A DNA stretch of 64,000 bases from an uncultured Thermoleophilia bacterium (GTDB lineage Bacteria; Actinomycetota; Thermoleophilia; UBA2241), in contig CAVPXV010000006.1 of NCBI GenBank assembly GCA_963709845.1, forward strand, positions 229,837-293,836, read 5' to 3'. The notes beneath the pieces were generated by a model that saw nothing but the letters and a program-made list of their open reading frames with translations, had not been told where the DNA came from and searched no databases. Within the stretch, counting starts at the first letter, position 1. Each line of letters starts with the position of its first letter. A program made the position numbers and the translations under genes. Of the stretch, positions 34,000-43,985 are shown one piece after another.

Positions 34000-34848
34000 G
34001 TGGACCAGCAGACACAGACCCGCATCGCGCTCGACCCCTCGGAGGACATGATCCGCGAGGCATGGCGCATCGTCGACGAGGCGCGGGAGCGCGGCGTCAC
34101 CTTGCGCCTTCTGGGCGGGATGGCCGTGCGAAGTCACCGCACCGACCAGCAGTTCTGCGCACGACCGCACGCCGATATCGACATGGCGGGGCTCTTTCGC
34201 CAGGCCGGCGAGATCACCGAGCTGATGCAGGAGATCGGCTATCGCGAGAACGCCGATGTGCGCCTCGCGACGGACTACCGGCAACGACAGTTCGTGCGCC
34301 CGTGCCGCCACGTCCACGCGGAGACCGGGCGGCCCATCCACGACGACGACCACGTGGACGTGTTCCTCGACGCGCTGCGCATGGACCACGACATCCCGCT
34401 CAAGGACAGGCTGGGACTCAATGAGTTCACCATCCCGCTCAGCGATCTGCTGCTCACCAAGCTCCAGGTACATCGGCGCACGGACAAGGACGTGCGTGAC
34501 ATCCTGGCGCTGCTCAAGGACAACGACGTGGGCTACGAAGAGCGGCCGGGCGTCGTGGACGCCACCTACATCGCCCGGCGTTGCGCCGACGAGTGGGGCC
34601 TCTTCCACGACGTGGTCACGAGCCTCGACGTCTGCGAGAGGATGGCGGCCGACTACGAGCTGAGCGAGGCCGACCGCGAGCGCGTCGTTCTCAACGGCGC
34701 GCGCCTCGTGGGCGCGCTCGACTCCGCACCCAAGAGCCTGAGCTGGCGGCTGCGCGCCCGCGTGGGCACGCGCATCCGCTGGCACCAGATCGTCGAGGAT
34801 CAGGACTCGGCGCCGCCGCGAGCGACGAGCGGGCCGCCCCTGGCATAG
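34000..34848 (+). CDS. Pol-beta-superfamily nucleotidyltransferase-like protein (uncharacterised; NTP_transf_5/AbiEii-like fold guess)
   Basis: 282 aa; LRLLGGMAVRSH...HADIDMA...HVDVF (G[GS]-x-DxD-x-D pattern) plus helical C-domain; clear paralog of residues about 385-675 of ORF 38443..40470. Confidence 0.55.
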   Translation: MDQQTQTRIALDPSEDMIREAWRIVDEARERGVTLRLLGGMAVRSHRTDQQFCARPHADIDMAGLFRQAGEITELMQEIGYRENADVRLATDYRQRQFVRPCRHVHAETGRPIHDDDHVDVFLDALRMDHDIPLKDRLGLNEFTIPLSDLLLTKLQVHRRTDKDVRDILALLKDNDVGYEERPGVVDATYIARRCADEWGLFHDVVTSLDVCERMAADYELSEADRERVVLNGARLVGALDSAPKSLSWRLRARVGTRIRWHQIVEDQDSAPPRATSGPPLA

Positions 34849-37757: not shown

Positions 37758-38423
37758 CTAGGGTTTGAGGGGGCAGTCGCGCCAGGCGGGGGGCGAGAGG
37801 CTGTCGTCCTCGAGGAGGGCCAGGGCCGCCTCCAGCACCGCGCGTTGCGCGCGCGGCTCGTCCGGCGGCCCAAGCGCGTAGCCGTGGAGGAAGGGCGCCC
37901 ACAGTGTCCGCGGCGCCGGCTCCTCCCCGCCCGCGGTGTGCAGGAGCGACAGCGCGACAGTGGCAACGCCGCAGCGTTCAAGCTCACGCGCCACCAGCCC
38001 GACGGGCCGGCTGCACAGCGGTCAAGTGGGGATCAGCAGCGCGGCGTCGGCGCGGTCGGCGAGAAGCGTGACGGCCGCCGCGGCGGCGGCGCGCCCGACC
38101 GCGCGCCGGCTCGCCGCCATGGGCCCGCCGAGCCCAAGGTGCCGCGGCGCGAGCTCGCCCAGGCGCCCGTCGCCGACGGCGTCGCGCAGGCGGTCCAGGC
38201 CCATGGCAAGGTTGCGGTCGAGGTTGGCGGAGCCCGGGTCGGCCGCTCCCGCCGAGGGCCGCCAGAGCGACCTGGTGTCCACGTCGGCCGGCACCTGGCG
38301 CCACTCGGGCTTGCCTGTGGTCACCCCGGGCTGCCGGCCGCGGCCGCGCGTGAAGCAGACGGAGACCGCGATCAGCGCCAGACGCGACTCGGCGAGCGGC
38401 CGGCGCAGGCGCGACCACGGCAT
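37758..38423 (-). CDS. GrdB-like (glycine/sarcosine/betaine/D-proline reductase selenoprotein B family) protein with in-frame TGA at 38022-38024: candidate selenoprotein or nonsense pseudogene
   Basis: ORFs 38022..38450 and 37758..37994 are one frame split by a single TGA: ...DRADAALLIPT-TGA-PLCSRPVGLVARELERCGVATVALSLL...; ATG 38423 (alternative TTG 38450, overlapping the Fic stop). Confidence 0.55.
37995..38013 (-). promoter_or_regulatory. SECIS-like hairpin 8 nt 3' of the in-frame UGA
   Basis: mRNA UGA-CCGCUGUG-CAGCC-GGCCCGUCG-GGCUG: 5 GC-rich bp, 9-nt loop starting GG, loop begins 16 nt after the U of UGA (alternative fold 7 bp with one bulge). Confidence 0.3.
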
Positions 38424-38442: not shown

Positions 38443-40470
38443 CTAGCCAAGGTCGCGCCGCCAGTCCCACTCGGGCGCGATGATCTGCGTGCCCTCGGTC
38501 TCTTCGACCTCGCGCCGCCAGGCCATGCGCTGGCCTACGCTGGCGCGCAGCCGCCAGCGCAGCGTCTTGCTCTCTTCGGCGATCGCCTCCTGCATGCCGG
38601 CGAGCCGACCATACGCGCGCGCCAGCTCCTCCTCGGAGAGCCCGTAGTCGTCCAGACGCGCGATGACCACGGCGAGGTTGTCGGAGATGTCGTGGTACAG
38701 GCCCCAGCTGCGCGAGCAGACGTCGGCCAGGTACGGCACGTCGATCGAGAGGTCGTCGTCGACTTCGCCCAGAGGTACATCCTTGACCAGGGCGATCACG
38801 TCGTGGACGTCCTTCTGGTTGATCTTGCCGATCTGCAACTTGGCGATGAGCGCGTCCACCGGCGAGATCGCGTACTCGTCGATGTCGAGCCGCCCGCGCA
38901 CGTCCACGTCGTGGTCCATACGCATGACGTCCATGAAGATGTCGAGGTGGTCGACGAGGGGCGGCTCGCGCCCGGCCTGGTCACCGCCGGCGTGAGCTTG
39001 CGCGGCGGCCTCCTCGAGCGCCTCCGTCTTGAGGTACTGCAGCTGCCCCGCGTCCGTCGATTGGGTGACGTAGCGGTTCTCCGTGTAGCCCTTGCCGACC
39101 AGTACCTCGTGCAGCTCGCGGCTCTGTGAGGAGAGGGCGACGAGATCGATGTCGGAGTACTCGCGGTCCATGAACGCGAGGTCGACGCAGTGCCGGCGGA
39201 CGGCGAGACCGCCGATGAGGCGCAGCTGCACGCCCTGCAGGCGCGCCGCGTCGATGATGTCCATGGCCTCCGCCATGAGGAGGTCGGCGCGCCGCGTGGG
39301 CGCCTCCCTCGCGCCCGCCCCCGACTTCACGGTGGCGCCCCGGGGCTCGGCGCCCGGCCCCCGCCGCAGTTCCTCGAGCGGGTGCATGACGGCGTCGAGC
39401 ACGTGGCGCGCCAGGTACACGCGCGGCCAGCGTTTCTCCGACCACTCCGCCAGCAGTCCGTTCGCCTCGAGCTCGCGCACGGCGCGGCGGGCGGTGGGGT
39501 TGGTGACACCGAGCACGCGCTGGGCCTCGGGCACCGTCATGCACGGCGTGCGGAAGAGCTCGTCGGCCAGGCGCAGCGCCTGGCCCTTGACCGTGGCGCG
39601 GTCGCGCGCGTAGTGGCTGATCAGCGCGCGCGCCTGGCGAGTGGCGCGGTCCGCCGTCTCGCGCACGCCGTTTGCGAAGAAGACGAGCCACGGCTCCCAC
39701 TCCCCTTGGGTCCGCGCGCGCTGCAGACGCAGGTAGTACTCGTCGCGGTGGCCCTCGAGGTAGGCCGACAGGTAGAGCAAGGGCCGCGCGAGCCGCCGGC
39801 GTTCGATGAGGAACAGCGTGATGAGCAGGCGGCCGAGACGGCCGTTGCCGCCCACAAACGGGTGGATGGCCTCGAACTGGGCGTGCAGGACGGCGCACTG
39901 CACGAGGTCGGGCAAATCGCCGCGGTGCTGCAGGAACCGTTCCCAATCGGCCAGCGCCTCGTGCATCTGCGGCACCGGCGGAGGCACGTAGGTGGCCGTC
40001 GCCAAGGTGGCCCCGGGCGTACCCATCCAGTTCTGGCCGGTGCGGAACTCGCCGGGTGTGCGCGCGCTCCCGAGCTCGCCGCGAAGCAGGCGCTCGTGCA
40101 GGGCGCGCACGAAGTCGAGTGAGAGCTGCTCCTCGCGCAGCCGCTCCACGCCGAAGCGCAGGGTGGCGATGCAGCTGCGTACCTCGCGCAGATGATCGCG
40201 CGGCACGGTGAGCCTGGCGGCCGCGACCTGGTCGAGGAGAAGGTCTGAGAGGCTGACCTCGGCGCCCTCGATGCGCGACGAGCAGAGCGCCTCCTGGCGC
40301 TTGAACGGCGCGTCCAGCAGGTCAGGGTCGGGCAGCTGGCCGTCGACGCCGCTGAGCTCGCCGAGGGCGGCGTCGGCGCGGGACAGGGCCAGCACGAGCT
40401 CGGGAGTGTACGAAAGCCTGGGCGGCAGCGGCGCCGGAACGAAGGCCGCGTAGCCGCCGGGCGTCTCCAC
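38443..40470 (-). CDS. Fic/DOC-family protein (N-terminal inhibitory helix, Fic core, winged-helix) fused to a C-terminal nucleotidyltransferase-like module
   Basis: 675-aa uninterrupted ORF; AFVPAPLPPRL Fic_N-type start, SSRIEG inhibitory motif, Fic motif HPFVGGNGRLGR, wHTH VLGVTNPTARRAVRELEANGLL, then LIGGLAVRRH...SDIDLV...HLDIF module. Confidence 0.8.
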   Translation of the reverse strand: METPGGYAAFVPAPLPPRLSYTPELVLALSRADAALGELSGVDGQLPDPDLLDAPFKRQEALCSSRIEGAEVSLSDLLLDQVAAARLTVPRDHLREVRSCIATLRFGVERLREEQLSLDFVRALHERLLRGELGSARTPGEFRTGQNWMGTPGATLATATYVPPPVPQMHEALADWERFLQHRGDLPDLVQCAVLHAQFEAIHPFVGGNGRLGRLLITLFLIERRRLARPLLYLSAYLEGHRDEYYLRLQRARTQGEWEPWLVFFANGVRETADRATRQARALISHYARDRATVKGQALRLADELFRTPCMTVPEAQRVLGVTNPTARRAVRELEANGLLAEWSEKRWPRVYLARHVLDAVMHPLEELRRGPGAEPRGATVKSGAGAREAPTRRADLLMAEAMDIIDAARLQGVQLRLIGGLAVRRHCVDLAFMDREYSDIDLVALSSQSRELHEVLVGKGYTENRYVTQSTDAGQLQYLKTEALEEAAAQAHAGGDQAGREPPLVDHLDIFMDVMRMDHDVDVRGRLDIDEYAISPVDALIAKLQIGKINQKDVHDVIALVKDVPLGEVDDDLSIDVPYLADVCSRSWGLYHDISDNLAVVIARLDDYGLSEEELARAYGRLAGMQEAIAEESKTLRWRLRASVGQRMAWRREVEETEGTQIIAPEWDWRRDLG

Positions 40471-40552
40471 GATCTCGCCCGCCGCGCCCTCACGGAACTC
40501 GCTGGGATCTATGGCACAGCCCTCGATCGGTCAGATGCCGCGACGCCGATGC

Positions 40553-40732: not shown

Positions 40733-41107
40733 ATGGGCGAAGGTCTGCTCAGCCCGCTCCATCTGCTCATCATCCTCGTCATCGCGTTCGTCTTCTTCGG
40801 GGCCAAGCGCCTGCCCGAGATGGGCAGATCGCTGGGCGGCGGCCTGCGCGAGTTCAAGCGCGGCCTCTCCGGGGTGACCGACGAACTCGACGACACCGCG
40901 CGACTCGCCGGCGCTCAGCCGCCCGCCCAGATAGCGGCACCGACGGCCCCGATCGCGGCACCGACGGCCCCGATCGCTCCGCCCGCGGCCCAGATCGTCG
41001 CGCCGGCGGTCCCCGTCGCTCCGCCCACCGTCACCGTCGTGGAGCCGGCGGTTGACGACCGGCCCGCGACGCAGGCGAGCGGCGCCCAGGAGCCGTCTAC
41101 GGAGTAG
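40733..41107 (+). CDS. tatA: twin-arginine translocase subunit TatA/E with Pro/Ala-rich repeat tail
   Basis: LLIILVIAFVFFGAKRLPEMGRSLGGGLREFKRG is the TatA TM plus amphipathic helix signature; GGAGG SD. Confidence 0.85.
   Translation: MGEGLLSPLHLLIILVIAFVFFGAKRLPEMGRSLGGGLREFKRGLSGVTDELDDTARLAGAQPPAQIAAPTAPIAAPTAPIAPPAAQIVAPAVPVAPPTVTVVEPAVDDRPATQASGAQEPSTE
40931..41056 (+). repeat. six tandem 21-nt (7-aa) repeats inside tatA
   Basis: IAAPTAP-IAAPTAP-IAPPAAQ-IVAPAVP-VAPPTVT-VVEPAVD; the first two units are nearly identical at DNA level. Confidence 0.8.
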
Positions 41108-43985
41108 TCCTTAGCTGCGTCAGCGTCCGGCCCAGGGCCTGGATGTCGCGCGCGAAGGTGGCGAGGTCACCGGCGCGCAGCGCAGCTTGGGCAGCCGCGT
41201 ACTGAGCGTTGGCGCGAGCGATGAGCTTTGCGGCGGCGCTGCTCACCCGGGCCGGCGACGGCGTCGTGGTGCTCCCGCCCTGCGTGCCGGCCGGGGGCGC
41301 GCCTCCGAAGATCTCGCTGAGCGCCTGGCCCAGGGTCGGCGCCATCACCACGTTCTGCTGCTGCCCGGTCGGGAGGTTAGGCGACGCGGACGGCGAGCGG
41401 TAGAAGACGATCACCCGCTGGATCTGCGGCAGCTGCGTCGTCGAGGACTGCAGGTAGAGCGGTTGCACGTAGAGCAACGAATCGGCGATCGGCACGGTCA
41501 GCAGATTGCCGAAGATGACGTGCGAGCCCTGCTGCCCCCACAGCGTGCGCTGCGCGGAGATCACCGGGTCCTGGTTGATCGCCGCCTCCACCTGGGCCGG
41601 GCCGTACACGTTCACGCTGGACGGGAACCCGAAGCTCACGGCTCGGCCGTAGTGAGGGGCATCAGACTCCGCCCCCAGCCAGGAGATCATGTTGGGCCGG
41701 CCGTTGGGGACGAACGGCAGGATGAGCACGAACTCCTCCCTGGTCTGGCCGGGCAGGCGCATGATCATGTAGTAGGCGCTCATCGGGCCCGCGCCCGAGA
41801 TCGAGATGTTGCTCGGGATCTCCCACTGGTTGCCCTTGTTGTAGAGGAGCCCCGGGTCGGTCACGTGATAGGTGGCGAAGACCTGCGCCTGGGTGCGGAA
41901 CAGGTCTTCGGGGTAGCGCACGTGCTGGCGCAGCATGCTCGGCATCGCGGACGCCGGCTGGAAGATGCCCGGGAAGATCTTCTCGTAGGTGCGCAGCATC
42001 GGGTCGCGGGGGTCGAAGACGTAGAAGCGCATCGTGCCGTTGTATGCGTCGATCACGACCTTCACGGAGTTGCGGATGTAGTTGAGGCCGCCGTTTGGAG
42101 CGGAATACGGGATGCGGCTTGTGGTGGTGTAGGCGTCGGCGATCCAGTACAGGCGGCCGCCGGCGATGACCATGTACGGATTGGCGTCGTACTGCAGGAA
42201 GGGCGCCGCCGCCGCAAGCCTGGCGCGGATGTTGTCGTAGATGATCACCCGGCTCTGGCTCGTGATCGCCGAGGTCGTGATGAAGCGCAGGTCACCGAAG
42301 CGGACCACGAACGCCAGGCGGTTGAGGAGCGATCCGATGGGGATGCCGCCGCTGCCGGTGTACTGCGCGTACACGTCGCCGCCGGGGCCAGGGTAGTCGA
42401 AGGCCGGGTCCTTGGTCTTGACGAGCACGTAGTTCGTGCCCAACAGGCCGTAGTAGATGCCAGGCTGGGTCACGGCGAGCGACGGGGCGGATGAGACGCT
42501 GGGCACGTTCTGGACGAGGAAGTCCGGCGCGCCGCCGGAGGCCACCTGATTGACCGCCGACAGCGCCACGCCGTAGCCGTGCGTGTACGTGATGTGCTGG
42601 TTCACCCAGGTCTGCGCCTGAGGCGGCAGGCCCGCCAGGCGCAGCTCGCGCGGGGCCAACATCGTCTGCGTGTACACGCCGTTGACCGGGTAGCGGTCGA
42701 CGCTCACCGTGGTGAACGAGTAGTAGGGACGCAGCTCCTGCAGCTGGCTGTAGCTGCGCAGCAGCACCTGGGGGTCCCACAAGCGGATGTTGCGCACCGT
42801 GACGTTGTTCGTCTGCAACTTGGCGGCCGAGAGGTCGCCGCGCAGCGGGTAGGGCGTCTCGTTGATGGCCGTGAGGCCGTAGGCGGCGCGCGTGGCGGCG
42901 ATGTCGTAGGCGATATACGGCTTCTCCTTGGAGAGCTGGTTGGGGTTCACGACGAGCGCCTGGAACAACGCCGGCACGATTCCGAGCAGGACGACGAGGG
43001 CGGCGAGCCAGATGCCGAAGGCGGCCGGCGGCCACCAGGCGCGGCGGCGGCGCGCGGCGTTGAAGAAGAGGGCGCCGCCGAGCGCGAGGGTGAGCACCAT
43101 CAGCACGCGGATCATGGGCAGGCGCACGTGGACGTCGGTGTAGCCGGCGCCGAACACCGCCCCTGCCGTGGAGTACAGCAGGTCCCACGCCGAGAACAAA
43201 TAGCCGATCCCCCCGACGACGAAGAGCGCGCCGACGAGGGCGGAGAGGTGCGCCACCGCACGCGGCTCGACGTGGAACCCGGTGACGCGCGACATGCTCT
43301 CGGCCACGCGCACCGGCGGCGGGATGCTCGCCCACTCCTGCGCCGTGCGCTGGACGGTGGGCGGCCTGCTGCGCACCTCGAGCCCGCCCAGCGTGAAGTG
43401 GGCGGCGATCGAGATGATGAGCGCGACGATCAGCGTGGCGAACAGGAACGAGACCACGTACTGCCACGCCGGCAGCGTGAAGACGTAGAAGGACAGATCG
43501 TGGTGGAAGATGGGGTCGCGGACGCCGAACGGCACGCCGTTCAGCGCGCGCGCGAACAGGAGCCAGGCGCCGGCGGCGGCGGAGCCCGCGATCACGGCGC
43601 CCACCAACGCCACGACCAGCCCGACGCGCCGCACCCAGCGATAGGCCTCCTCGTGCACGACCTCGATCACGTCGACGCCTTCGACAGGCCGGTACCGTGG
43701 CGCGAGCCGCCGCGCCACCTCGATGTTCCCGAAGACGAGGGCGAAGAAGGCGGCGGCGAACAGCGGCCACACGACGAGTCCGATGGCGAGGCGCTTCCAG
43801 AACACGGTGCGCAGGCCCACCTCGCCGAACCACAGCCACGAGACGTAGAGGCGGGCGACCACGACGACGATGACGATGAGGACGAGGCCGATGGCCACGG
43901 CGAGGAAGACGCGGCGCATGCGTCGCCGGCGGCGGTGCGGCGGGCGGTCCTCCTCGGGTGCGTCGATCACAGTGACCACGCTCAT
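41097..43985 (-). CDS. UPF0182-family large membrane protein
   Basis: 962-aa uninterrupted ORF; N-terminal ARLYVSWLWFGEVGLRTVFWKRL and 7 TM followed by a large extracytoplasmic domain, as in actinobacterial UPF0182 proteins. Confidence 0.8.
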   Translation of the reverse strand: MSVVTVIDAPEEDRPPHRRRRRMRRVFLAVAIGLVLIVIVVVVARLYVSWLWFGEVGLRTVFWKRLAIGLVVWPLFAAAFFALVFGNIEVARRLAPRYRPVEGVDVIEVVHEEAYRWVRRVGLVVALVGAVIAGSAAAGAWLLFARALNGVPFGVRDPIFHHDLSFYVFTLPAWQYVVSFLFATLIVALIISIAAHFTLGGLEVRSRPPTVQRTAQEWASIPPPVRVAESMSRVTGFHVEPRAVAHLSALVGALFVVGGIGYLFSAWDLLYSTAGAVFGAGYTDVHVRLPMIRVLMVLTLALGGALFFNAARRRRAWWPPAAFGIWLAALVVLLGIVPALFQALVVNPNQLSKEKPYIAYDIAATRAAYGLTAINETPYPLRGDLSAAKLQTNNVTVRNIRLWDPQVLLRSYSQLQELRPYYSFTTVSVDRYPVNGVYTQTMLAPRELRLAGLPPQAQTWVNQHITYTHGYGVALSAVNQVASGGAPDFLVQNVPSVSSAPSLAVTQPGIYYGLLGTNYVLVKTKDPAFDYPGPGGDVYAQYTGSGGIPIGSLLNRLAFVVRFGDLRFITTSAITSQSRVIIYDNIRARLAAAAPFLQYDANPYMVIAGGRLYWIADAYTTTSRIPYSAPNGGLNYIRNSVKVVIDAYNGTMRFYVFDPRDPMLRTYEKIFPGIFQPASAMPSMLRQHVRYPEDLFRTQAQVFATYHVTDPGLLYNKGNQWEIPSNISISGAGPMSAYYMIMRLPGQTREEFVLILPFVPNGRPNMISWLGAESDAPHYGRAVSFGFPSSVNVYGPAQVEAAINQDPVISAQRTLWGQQGSHVIFGNLLTVPIADSLLYVQPLYLQSSTTQLPQIQRVIVFYRSPSASPNLPTGQQQNVVMAPTLGQALSEIFGGAPPAGTQGGSTTTPSPARVSSAAAKLIARANAQYAAAQAALRAGDLATFARDIQALGRTLTQLRTTP

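Follow-up and report, generated by a model that had tools for sequence, protein, structure and literature searches.

A 64-kb window of genomic DNA from an uncultured Thermoleophilia bacterium (64,000 nucleotides of contig CAVPXV010000006.1, assembly GCA_963709845.1; called the window throughout) carries at 38443..40470, on its minus strand, a gene for a protein in which a Fic protein is fused to a nucleotidyltransferase (NTase) of the Pol-beta type. Cells attach nucleotides to proteins, RNA, and small molecules mainly by means of two folds that are not related to each other, those of Fic proteins and of Pol-beta NTases, and we know of no case in which the two are joined in one chain. Residues 1-361 are a complete SoFic-type Fic protein that comprises Fic_N, an inhibitory helix, the Fic core, and a winged-helix domain. 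The C-terminal module is, by motif and predicted fold, a member of the Pol-beta NTase superfamily, and its sequence places it outside the AbiEii/MenT (DUF1814) group. What is new is the conserved combination of two known kinds of module in one chain. The fusion appears to be a vertically inherited multi-paralog family that occurs almost only in uncultured Thermoleophilia/Actinomycetota, and the alignments show both modules to be under strong purifying selection. Our tentative reading, to which we give a probability of about one in three, is that the NTase would be the active enzyme and that the Fic module, predicted to be impaired and autoinhibited, would regulate or target it.

The Fic Module and Its Missing Metal Ligand

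The preliminary description of this DNA, drawn up from the letters and their reading frames, proposed a complete Fic protein in the N-terminal half, and profile and structure searches bear this out. Pfam Fic (PF02661) is matched at 2.8e-17 with 63.8 bits (cut-off 24) and Fic_N (PF13784) at 1.2e-14 with 54.5 bits (cut-off 26.7). The PADLOC SoFic model PDLC03963 matches residues 6-361 at an E value of 8.5e-100, and the SoFic chains of the Protein Data Bank (PDB) match the fusion protein at about 1e-35; the SoFic equivalog model of NCBIfam (NF046030) gives 142.1 bits, which is below its cut-off of 550. The full-length AlphaFold2 (AF2) model has a predicted local distance difference test (pLDDT) value of 81.7 and a predicted template modelling score (pTM) of 0.75. 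In Foldseek it superposes on SoFic (3EQX, 3ZCN, and 3ZEC) with a template modelling (TM) score of 0.77, normalised to SoFic, over about 365 columns that include the winged-helix domain; it also superposes on the Mycobacterium marinum Fic protein 7CB8, and FICD is among the matches. Matches to helix-turn-helix (HTH) families of Pfam at residues 294-349 are weak, and the helices and strands of a winged helix are visible in the model. The features of the open reading frame (ORF) and of its Fic half are as follows.

38443..40470, minus strand: Fic-NTase fusion ORF, 675 aa, GTG start, stop at 38443-38445
40144..40389, minus strand: Fic_N region, residues 28-109 (Pfam PF13784)
40264..40281, minus strand: inhibitory-helix motif SSRIEG, residues 64-69 (motif; Glu68 is SoFic Glu73)
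39808..40125, minus strand: Fic core domain, residues 116-221 (Pfam PF02661; Foldseek to SoFic)
39829..39864, minus strand: Fic motif HPFVGGNGRLGR, residues 203-214 (motif, SoFic alignment)
39850-39852, minus strand: Gly207 in place of the Mg2+-binding Asp/Glu (SoFic alignment)
39403..39591, minus strand: winged-helix C-terminal domain, residues about 294-356 (weak HTH Pfam matches, Foldseek, model)

Sequence landmarks of the Fic half are GGYAAFVPAPLPPRL at residues 5-19, the core stretch AIHPFVGGNGRLGRLL at residues 201-216, and the winged-helix-like segment VLGVTNPTARRAVRELEANGLLAEW at residues 319-343. In the inhibitory helix, S64, R66, I67, E68, and G69 are invariant among the orthologs of the window's own clade, which is called G1 below. 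The catalytic residues His203, Asn209, Arg211, and Arg214 are likewise invariant in orthologs, as are G208 and G210. A DEYY segment aligns with the SoFic stretch that bears the ATP-contacting Tyr241, and its Tyr245 and Tyr246 are invariant; the SoFic residues, including the inhibitory Glu73, are those given in PMC12249575.

The Fic motif in its canonical form, HxFx(D/E)GN(G/K)RxxR, is retained at every position except the acidic residue at motif position 5. In the alignment with SoFic, HPFIDGNGRTGR stands directly opposite HPFVGGNGRLGR with Asp changed to Gly at position 207, and because the two motifs align directly, Gly207 is, as the preliminary description had it, a true substitution and not a misalignment. 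Gly207 is invariant among 26, and then 24, aligned orthologs. In Fic proteins the phosphates are stabilised by Mg2+, whose ligand is the acidic residue of the motif, and in EfFIC the exchange of this residue (E115A) abolishes deAMPylation, the same residue being called critical for AMPylation (PMC6408439). In Bartonella BepC the metal position is taken by Lys; this protein acts non-enzymatically and keeps nucleotide binding (PMC7842960).

The Nucleotidyltransferase Module

The two modules are separated by the Gly/Ala/Arg-rich linker that had been noticed from the sequence; it is variable in alignments and predicted to be disordered, with pLDDT <50 at residues 375-389. The C-terminal module, modelled by AF2 with the family alignment (pLDDT 86.9, pTM 0.84), is predicted to run in the order helix, strand, GG-helix, SDIDLV strand, helix, strands, and HLDIF strand, which is the topology of Pol-beta NTases. 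A Foldseek comparison with the PDB had been named beforehand as the check on which this assignment would stand or fall, and all of its top 30 matches are NTases. The best is MenT1 (E 3e-4, probability 1.0), followed by ANT(2'')-Ia and LnuA and then by poly(A), poly(U), and CCA-adding enzymes and FKRP, with TM scores of 0.3-0.6 for the NTase matches. Assignment of the modelled module to the Pol-beta NTase fold is solid, and the Pol-beta-type module proposed in the preliminary description, with its motifs in place, has held up.

Sequence profiles say less about this half. When residues 386-675 are compared with Pfam, NTP_transf_5 (PF14907) is the only family to appear, at a sub-threshold 18.3-19.6 bits (gathering score 31.2), and the C-terminal half has no match in the NCBIfam or PADLOC models, AbiEii included. 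The profile searches that had been suggested were therefore borne out for Fic and Fic_N, fell below threshold for NTP_transf_5, and failed for AbiEii. A sequence profile of the NTase gave chance matches only in the PDB (E >= 0.1), and the viral structures of BFVD gave just weak, generic NTase-like matches and nothing specific.

39292..39360, minus strand: Gly/Ala/Arg-rich linker, residues about 371-393 (predicted disordered)
38521..39291, minus strand: Pol-beta-type NTase module with helical subdomain, residues about 394-650 (AF2, Foldseek, relatives)
39193..39222, minus strand: NTase motif I, RLIGGLAVRR, residues 417-426 (beta1-alpha2 junction; G420 and G421 invariant)
39139..39156, minus strand: NTase motif II, SDIDLV, residues 439-444 (on beta2; D440 and D442 invariant)
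38911..38952, minus strand: NTase motif III and family signature DHLDIFMDVMRMDH, residues 507-520 (alignments)
38800..38841, minus strand: family-specific helical motif KLQIGKINQKDVHD, residues 544-557 (alignments)
38446..38520, minus strand: C-terminal tail ending in IAPEWDWRRDLG, residues 651-675 (alignments, model)

The glycine motif, noted earlier as LIGGLAVRRH, lies at residues 418-427, and HLDIF (residues 508-512) lies on a later beta strand of the model, with DHLDIF invariant. Across alignments of 30, and then 60, sequences the invariant patterns are R-L-x-G-G-L-A-x-R, D-x-D (in SDIDxx), H-x-D-x-F-x-D, M-x-M-D-H, K-x-Q...K-D-x-H-D, and K-D. Within DHLDIFMDVMRMDH the invariant residues are H508, D510, F512, D514, M516, M518, D519, and H520, and within KLQIGKINQKDVHD they are K544, Q546, K553, D554, H556, and D557. 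Judged by these motifs, the NTase module appears to be catalytically complete. The last ~16 residues of the chain, ending in IAPEWDWRRDLG, are near-invariant in the fusion clades and are replaced by unrelated sequence in distant relatives (<=58% identity).

The Fusion as a Multi-Paralog Family

The fusion was compared with a search set of 5.8 billion proteins, in which homologs came from ENA, JGI, NCBI, and Logan assemblies. At least 120 protein clusters were listed, at 70-81% identity, nearly all with 96-100% query coverage and a length of about 690 aa. Those that have a name are called 'Fic family protein', and their precomputed Pfam domains are just Fic_N and Fic, which leaves the C-terminal half unannotated. 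In an alignment of 26 of these sequences the two halves show the same degree of conservation (74% mean column identity), and length varies only at the N-terminus, in the linker, and in one loop of the C-terminal module. Such even conservation across clusters excludes an overlooked stop or frameshift in the linker; one ORF is retained across independent assemblies, in keeping with the preliminary description of an uninterrupted chain. Several shorter 'standalone' near-relatives in metagenome assemblies resemble frameshifted fragments of the fusion, as would suit an error of assembly or gene calling that had joined two genes, but such an artefact has practically no chance against cross-assembly conservation. 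The single ORF recurs at 96-100% coverage in the at least 120 clusters and in 64 full-length ORFs that come from differing projects and sequencing technologies.

Genomes of the species in the Genome Taxonomy Database (GTDB) were also scanned with peptide patterns of the family; 130 stretches were confirmed, and 76 distinct loci among them were retained. With four exceptions these loci are labelled Thermoleophilia, Actinomycetes, or Actinomycetota metagenome-assembled genomes; the exceptions, labelled Gemmatimonadales or deltaproteobacterial, may be mis-binned contigs. The 64 full-length fusion ORFs were read from the fetched loci and clustered together with the window protein and five Arg-type database sequences (n=70). 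On these sequences the family appears to consist of at least four paralog clades, with about 73-78% identity within clades and 55-63% between them.

Clade G1 (the window's): 46 members, Gly at the metal position
Clade E/R: 17 members, Glu in 12 locus ORFs (HPFxEGNGR) and Arg in 5 database proteins (HPFxRGNGR)
Clade G2: 6 members, Gly at the metal position
Clade G3: 1 member, Gly at the metal position

Genomes often hold two or three fusion copies. Within one genome a Gly-type and a Glu-type gene are often separated by only 2-7 kb, and the two show 57-61% identity from end to end, which indicates that the whole two-module gene was duplicated and then diverged at the metal position. The remaining catalytic residues of both modules are fixed across the paralogs. 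The Glu-type second paralog (HPFLEGNGR) is seen in L020, L021, L028, L030, L042, L043, L045, L052, L046/L063, and L036/L065; the HPFxRGNGR sister group is formed by P0413-P0418, and further Gly-type clades include L066, L071, and L072 as well as L069. In L048 the second fusion copy is frameshifted. The 64 kb of the window itself hold the G1 copy only.

Literature searches found no publication on a Fic-NTase fusion and nothing relevant on NTP_transf_5. The architecture, which the preliminary description did not recognise as described, belongs to a large family whose C-terminal half is unannotated and for which no describing paper was found. One relative carries precomputed PF14907 and Fic matches together, so the architecture may show in domain databases without having been discussed.

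Proposed Mechanism and Alternative Explanations

In the mechanism that we favour, the NTase would be the output enzyme and would transfer a nucleoside monophosphate to a hydroxyl group on a protein, a small molecule, or the 3' end of an RNA. The Gly-type Fic module would be weak or inactive in canonical Mg-ATP-dependent AMP transfer and, autoinhibited by Glu68, would serve as a nucleotide- and target-binding module with a regulatory or targeting role, whereas the Glu-type paralogs of related genomes would retain full Fic chemistry. Coupling between the modules would most plausibly proceed by nucleotidylation or by binding, in cis or within a dimer, and candidate sites for it would be the invariant C-terminal tail or the hydroxyls of S439 and Y438 beside the DxD. 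The full-length pTM of the model is a hint that the domains may be packed in a defined way. Abundant standalone relatives, and a standalone paralog in the window, support an independent function of the NTase.

Precedents for the parts of this mechanism exist. MenT toxins are switched off when a hydroxyl residue at position -2 relative to the DxD is phosphorylated, also by autophosphorylation (PMC11375011), and in the fusion the hydroxyls of S439 and Y438 occupy positions -1 and -2. MntA AMPylates HepT, also in fused MNT-HEPN proteins (PMC13000451). SoFic functions in dimeric form and requires its C-terminal domain (PMC12249575), a behaviour that would allow for control in trans and for mixed paralog dimers.

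Several observations weigh against an NTase enzyme under the control of an impaired Fic module. The Gly-type motif is otherwise perfectly conserved and is accompanied by the inhibitory Glu, which argues that the Fic site is still catalytic; this strict conservation is the main argument for unconventional Fic catalysis, in which the metal might be bound through the inhibitory Glu or a carboxylate of the substrate, or the reaction might be metal-independent. With TM scores of only 0.3-0.6, the fold matches do not allow the subfamily or acceptor of the NTase to be assigned. The C-terminal tail, one of the candidate coupling sites, has low confidence in the model and is predicted to be disordered. 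A model built on Gly/Glu pairs is unsupported here, as the window has no Glu-type paralog within its 64 kb.

The arguments for a working Fic site lead back to an idea of the preliminary description, an enzyme with two active modules, which would act as writer and eraser on one target (compare the NTase domains of GlnE and the FICD switch) or catalyze two successive transfers. We regard this as unlikely, though it draws on the same invariance of the Fic catalytic residues, bar the metal ligand, and of all NTase residues. The inhibitory Glu is kept, and this residue supports deAMPylation in FICD and EfFIC; in the Glu-type paralogs, which share the architecture, the Fic site is canonical throughout. 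However, the acidic residue that EfFIC requires for deAMPylation, and that is critical for its AMPylation, is missing from the window's copy, and no conserved partner or target gene is found nearby. The opposite extreme, a catalytically dead Fic scaffold that holds the NTase on DNA or in a dimer, for instance a small-molecule NTase of the ANT(2'')/Lnu kind tethered to a winged-helix regulator, would account for the lost metal ligand and for the winged helix-turn-helix domain. It could appeal to BepC as a precedent for a non-enzymatic Fic domain, to the Foldseek matches with ANT(2'')-Ia and LnuA, and to weak Aminoglycoside-2''-adenylyltransferase Pfam matches of family members. His203, Asn209, Arg211, Arg214, and SSRIEG nevertheless stay invariant across clades that are 55-63% identical, and a dead scaffold seems doubtful to us.

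An anti-phage or toxin-antitoxin role, in which a SoFic-type abortive-infection toxin would have gained a MenT/AbiEii-like NTase as second effector or in which a toxin and an antitoxin would be fused and one module would silence the other, strikes us as similarly improbable. It is suggested by the strong PADLOC match to SoFic, itself a toxic AMPylase with a small downstream antitoxin, by MenT1 as the best structural match of the NTase, by two to three paralogs per genome that vary at the catalytic residue, and by NTase relatives fused to phosphoribosyltransferase domains. Against it stand the loosely syntenic chromosomal context, which lacks defence or mobile-element genes, and orthologs that are 70-81% identical across many species in a manner that resembles vertical inheritance. 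The NTase has no match in phages and one in plasmids, its module matches no PADLOC model, AbiEii included, and the NCBIfam SoFic equivalog score (142 bits) is far from the cut-off of 550. It is no more probable that the chain is a self-contained nucleotidylation switch, in which the Fic and NTase modules would each modify the other or have a target in common, the Gly, Glu, and Arg variants would be catalytic and pseudo-catalytic partners, and the tail (...APEWDWRRDLG) would be an intramolecular substrate or latch, all within one chain or in homo- or heterodimers. Such a switch, if it exists, would represent a new regulatory logic that joins two unrelated AMPylation folds.

Reading Frame, Strand, and Start Codon

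The ORF at 38443..40470 is uninterrupted over 675 codons on the minus strand and starts with GTG. The preliminary description was right about its length and continuity and overlooked its strand, although all of the peptide motifs that it quoted are recovered in the minus-strand translation. A plus-strand reading of the same interval is ruled out by the stops that it contains. The window has a G+C content of ~70%, and long ORFs therefore arise by chance on both strands. In L021 (4762..11625, minus strand) a stop-free antisense ORF of 2287 codons runs across both Fic-NTase paralogs, so ORF length is unreliable evidence in genomes of ~70% G+C.

Homologs start with MDPSEF, ~16 codons upstream of the GTG start called in the window, and the window codon that aligns with their ATG or GTG start is ATA (40518..40516, minus strand). 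This ATA is preceded by a conserved GAGG Shine-Dalgarno sequence with a spacer of 7 nt (the region upstream extends to 40535), and the 16 codons between it and the annotated GTG encode a conserved peptide, (I)DPSEFREGAAGEI.

40471..40518, minus strand: candidate N-terminal extension (I)DPSEFREGAAGEI (ATA aligns with the ATG/GTG of homologs; GAGG 7 nt upstream)

Because the ATA aligns with the homolog starts, GAGG precedes it, and the upstream peptide is conserved, the real product is probably a protein of 691 aa that is made from a non-canonical or mis-read start codon, and the annotated GTG at 40470 probably sits too far downstream. The ATA at 40516..40518 reflects a non-canonical start, a recent mutation, or else an erroneous base call.

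Relatives of the NTase Module

A word-indexed search with the NTase module gave 358 clusters of relatives, and an exhaustive profile search gave 2259 representative clusters, 544 of them with E <= 1e-30. Most are standalone proteins of ~250-300 aa, and the members checked are nameless or called 'hypothetical protein'. NTP_transf_5 is matched below threshold by 18 of 30 aligned family members (best 1.3e-6), and a few relatives carry a precomputed PF14907 match; single members match Aminoglycoside-2''-adenylyltransferase, weakly, or DUF6036. On long contigs, standalone NTase genes were found amid ordinary chromosomal genes. Two distant relatives of 527-570 aa (P0294 and P0332) are fused to a phosphoribosyltransferase (Pribosyltran) domain, a further architecture of the family that lacks annotation. 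The window contains one standalone member of its own.

34000..34848, plus strand: standalone NTase paralog, 282 aa (38% identity over 263 aa, E 4e-55)

This paralog lies 3.6 kb from the fusion, keeps GG, DxD, DHxDxFxD, MDH, and KLQ..KDxRD, and has weak Pfam matches to Aminoglyc_resit and NTP_transf_5. In a related genome (L002, 9055-9879, minus strand) a homolog of it divergently adjoins the fusion.

No relative of the NTase module was found in 50,697 phage records, and the one found in 72,556 plasmid records lies on a haloarchaeal megaplasmid, Halobellus limi plasmid NZ_CP031312.1 (387328-388080; L084). It is a 'hypothetical protein' of 250 aa with 28% identity to the NTase module, and its gene follows, at a distance of 47 nt, a metallophosphoesterase gene of the same strand. 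In this single case the NTase and the metallophosphoesterase could form a writer/eraser pair.

Genomic Neighbourhood

Neighbouring genes were taken from the stored calls of the contig, as high-GC ORFs picked by length were mostly spurious in Pfam. The neighbours encode UPF0182, TatA/B, a metallo-beta-lactamase-fold protein, DUF6855, CMD, EamA, a nitroreductase, a sigma-factor-like protein, and a GAF-GGDEF protein, and two genes lie directly upstream of the fusion.

40733..41107, plus strand: TatA/B-like gene
41097..43985, minus strand: UPF0182 membrane protein, 962 aa (Pfam 4.8e-273)

At least two other genomes also have UPF0182 close to the fusion. CMD is present around 31 of 78 loci, and Lactamase_B_3 and EamA each around 12 of the 78; these neighbours recur only loosely, and no conserved operon partner or target gene was seen across the 78 loci. 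No defence, toxin-antitoxin, or mobile-element genes were seen around the fusion loci, and no antitoxin-like neighbour at the loci examined. Loose chromosomal synteny, together with the near-absence of relatives from phages and plasmids, is more in line with vertical, lineage-specific inheritance than with a mobile defence gene.

The two small ORFs that come next downstream of the fusion stop are found only in the three closest genomes and appear to be a single gene with an in-frame TGA (~37758..38423, minus strand) that gene callers have split. The TGA (...ALLIPT-TGA-PLCSRPVGLVARELE...) is in the same frame in three genomes (the window, L002/L011, and L010), yields a U-x-x-C motif, and is directly followed by a stable hairpin (-26.2 kcal/mol, z -2.3). 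The gene has no Pfam family and is a candidate selenoprotein with a putative element resembling a selenocysteine insertion sequence (SECIS). In L021 a 659-aa ORF between the Gly- and Glu-type paralogs, which by the look of its sequence we take to be an S9 (prolyl-oligopeptidase-type) peptidase-like protein, shows no obvious link to the fusion.

Comparison with Known Systems

The closest known relatives of the Fic half are SoFic (Shewanella oneidensis SO_4266, 3EQX/3ZCN) and E. coli Sofic, class II Fic AMPylases in anti-phage defence. The fusion shares their order of Fic_N, inhibitory helix, core, and winged helix at about 26% identity to SoFic and belongs to the SoFic-type Fic proteins as a divergent member. 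It differs from SoFic in having Gly for the Mg2+-binding Asp of HPFIDGNGRTGR, in its ~300 extra C-terminal residues, which form the NTase, and in its syntenic chromosomal context instead of a defence island; no 47-aa AS1-like antitoxin was identified for it. The sole replacement of the acidic residue in an otherwise intact motif is shared with BepC (HxFxKGNGRxxR), which is directly analogous to the Arg-type sister clade (HPFxRGNGR). BepC, however, is a secreted, host-targeting effector of FIC-OB-BID architecture, whereas the fusion contains an NTase and has at the metal position Gly, which offers no side chain in place of Mg2+.

The NTase half resembles MenT1 (Rv0078A) in its minimal Pol-beta core, its DxD with a neighbouring hydroxyl residue, and a downstream helical motif with Lys and Asp, at TM 0.31-0.53 and 12-15% identity. 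It is ~100 residues longer than MenT1 and has MRMDH and KLQ..KDxHD signatures of its own, and unlike MenT/AbiEii proteins it has no Pfam or PADLOC match to DUF1814/AbiEii and no adjacent antitoxin gene. NTP_transf_5 is the sole family signal at the sequence level, and just the first ~90 residues align with it. The top fold matches include ANT(2'')-Ia and LnuA, and an antibiotic substrate of the fusion NTase has no support. In HepT-MntA (type VII toxin-antitoxin) and in fused MNT-HEPN proteins there is a precedent for an NTase module that covalently controls its partner; here the partner is a Fic protein and not a HEPN RNase, homology is limited to the NTase fold, and the coupling is hypothetical.

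The NTase family, with more than 2000 representative clusters, is an annotation gap. The wider impact of the fusion is limited by its distribution, largely in uncultured Thermoleophilia/Actinomycetota of soil and sediment. Its Gly, Glu, and Arg series at the metal position, with all else frozen, is nevertheless a natural experiment on the role of the acidic residue of the FIC motif, and the fusion may reveal how an NTase, or a Fic enzyme, is controlled by an attached partner.

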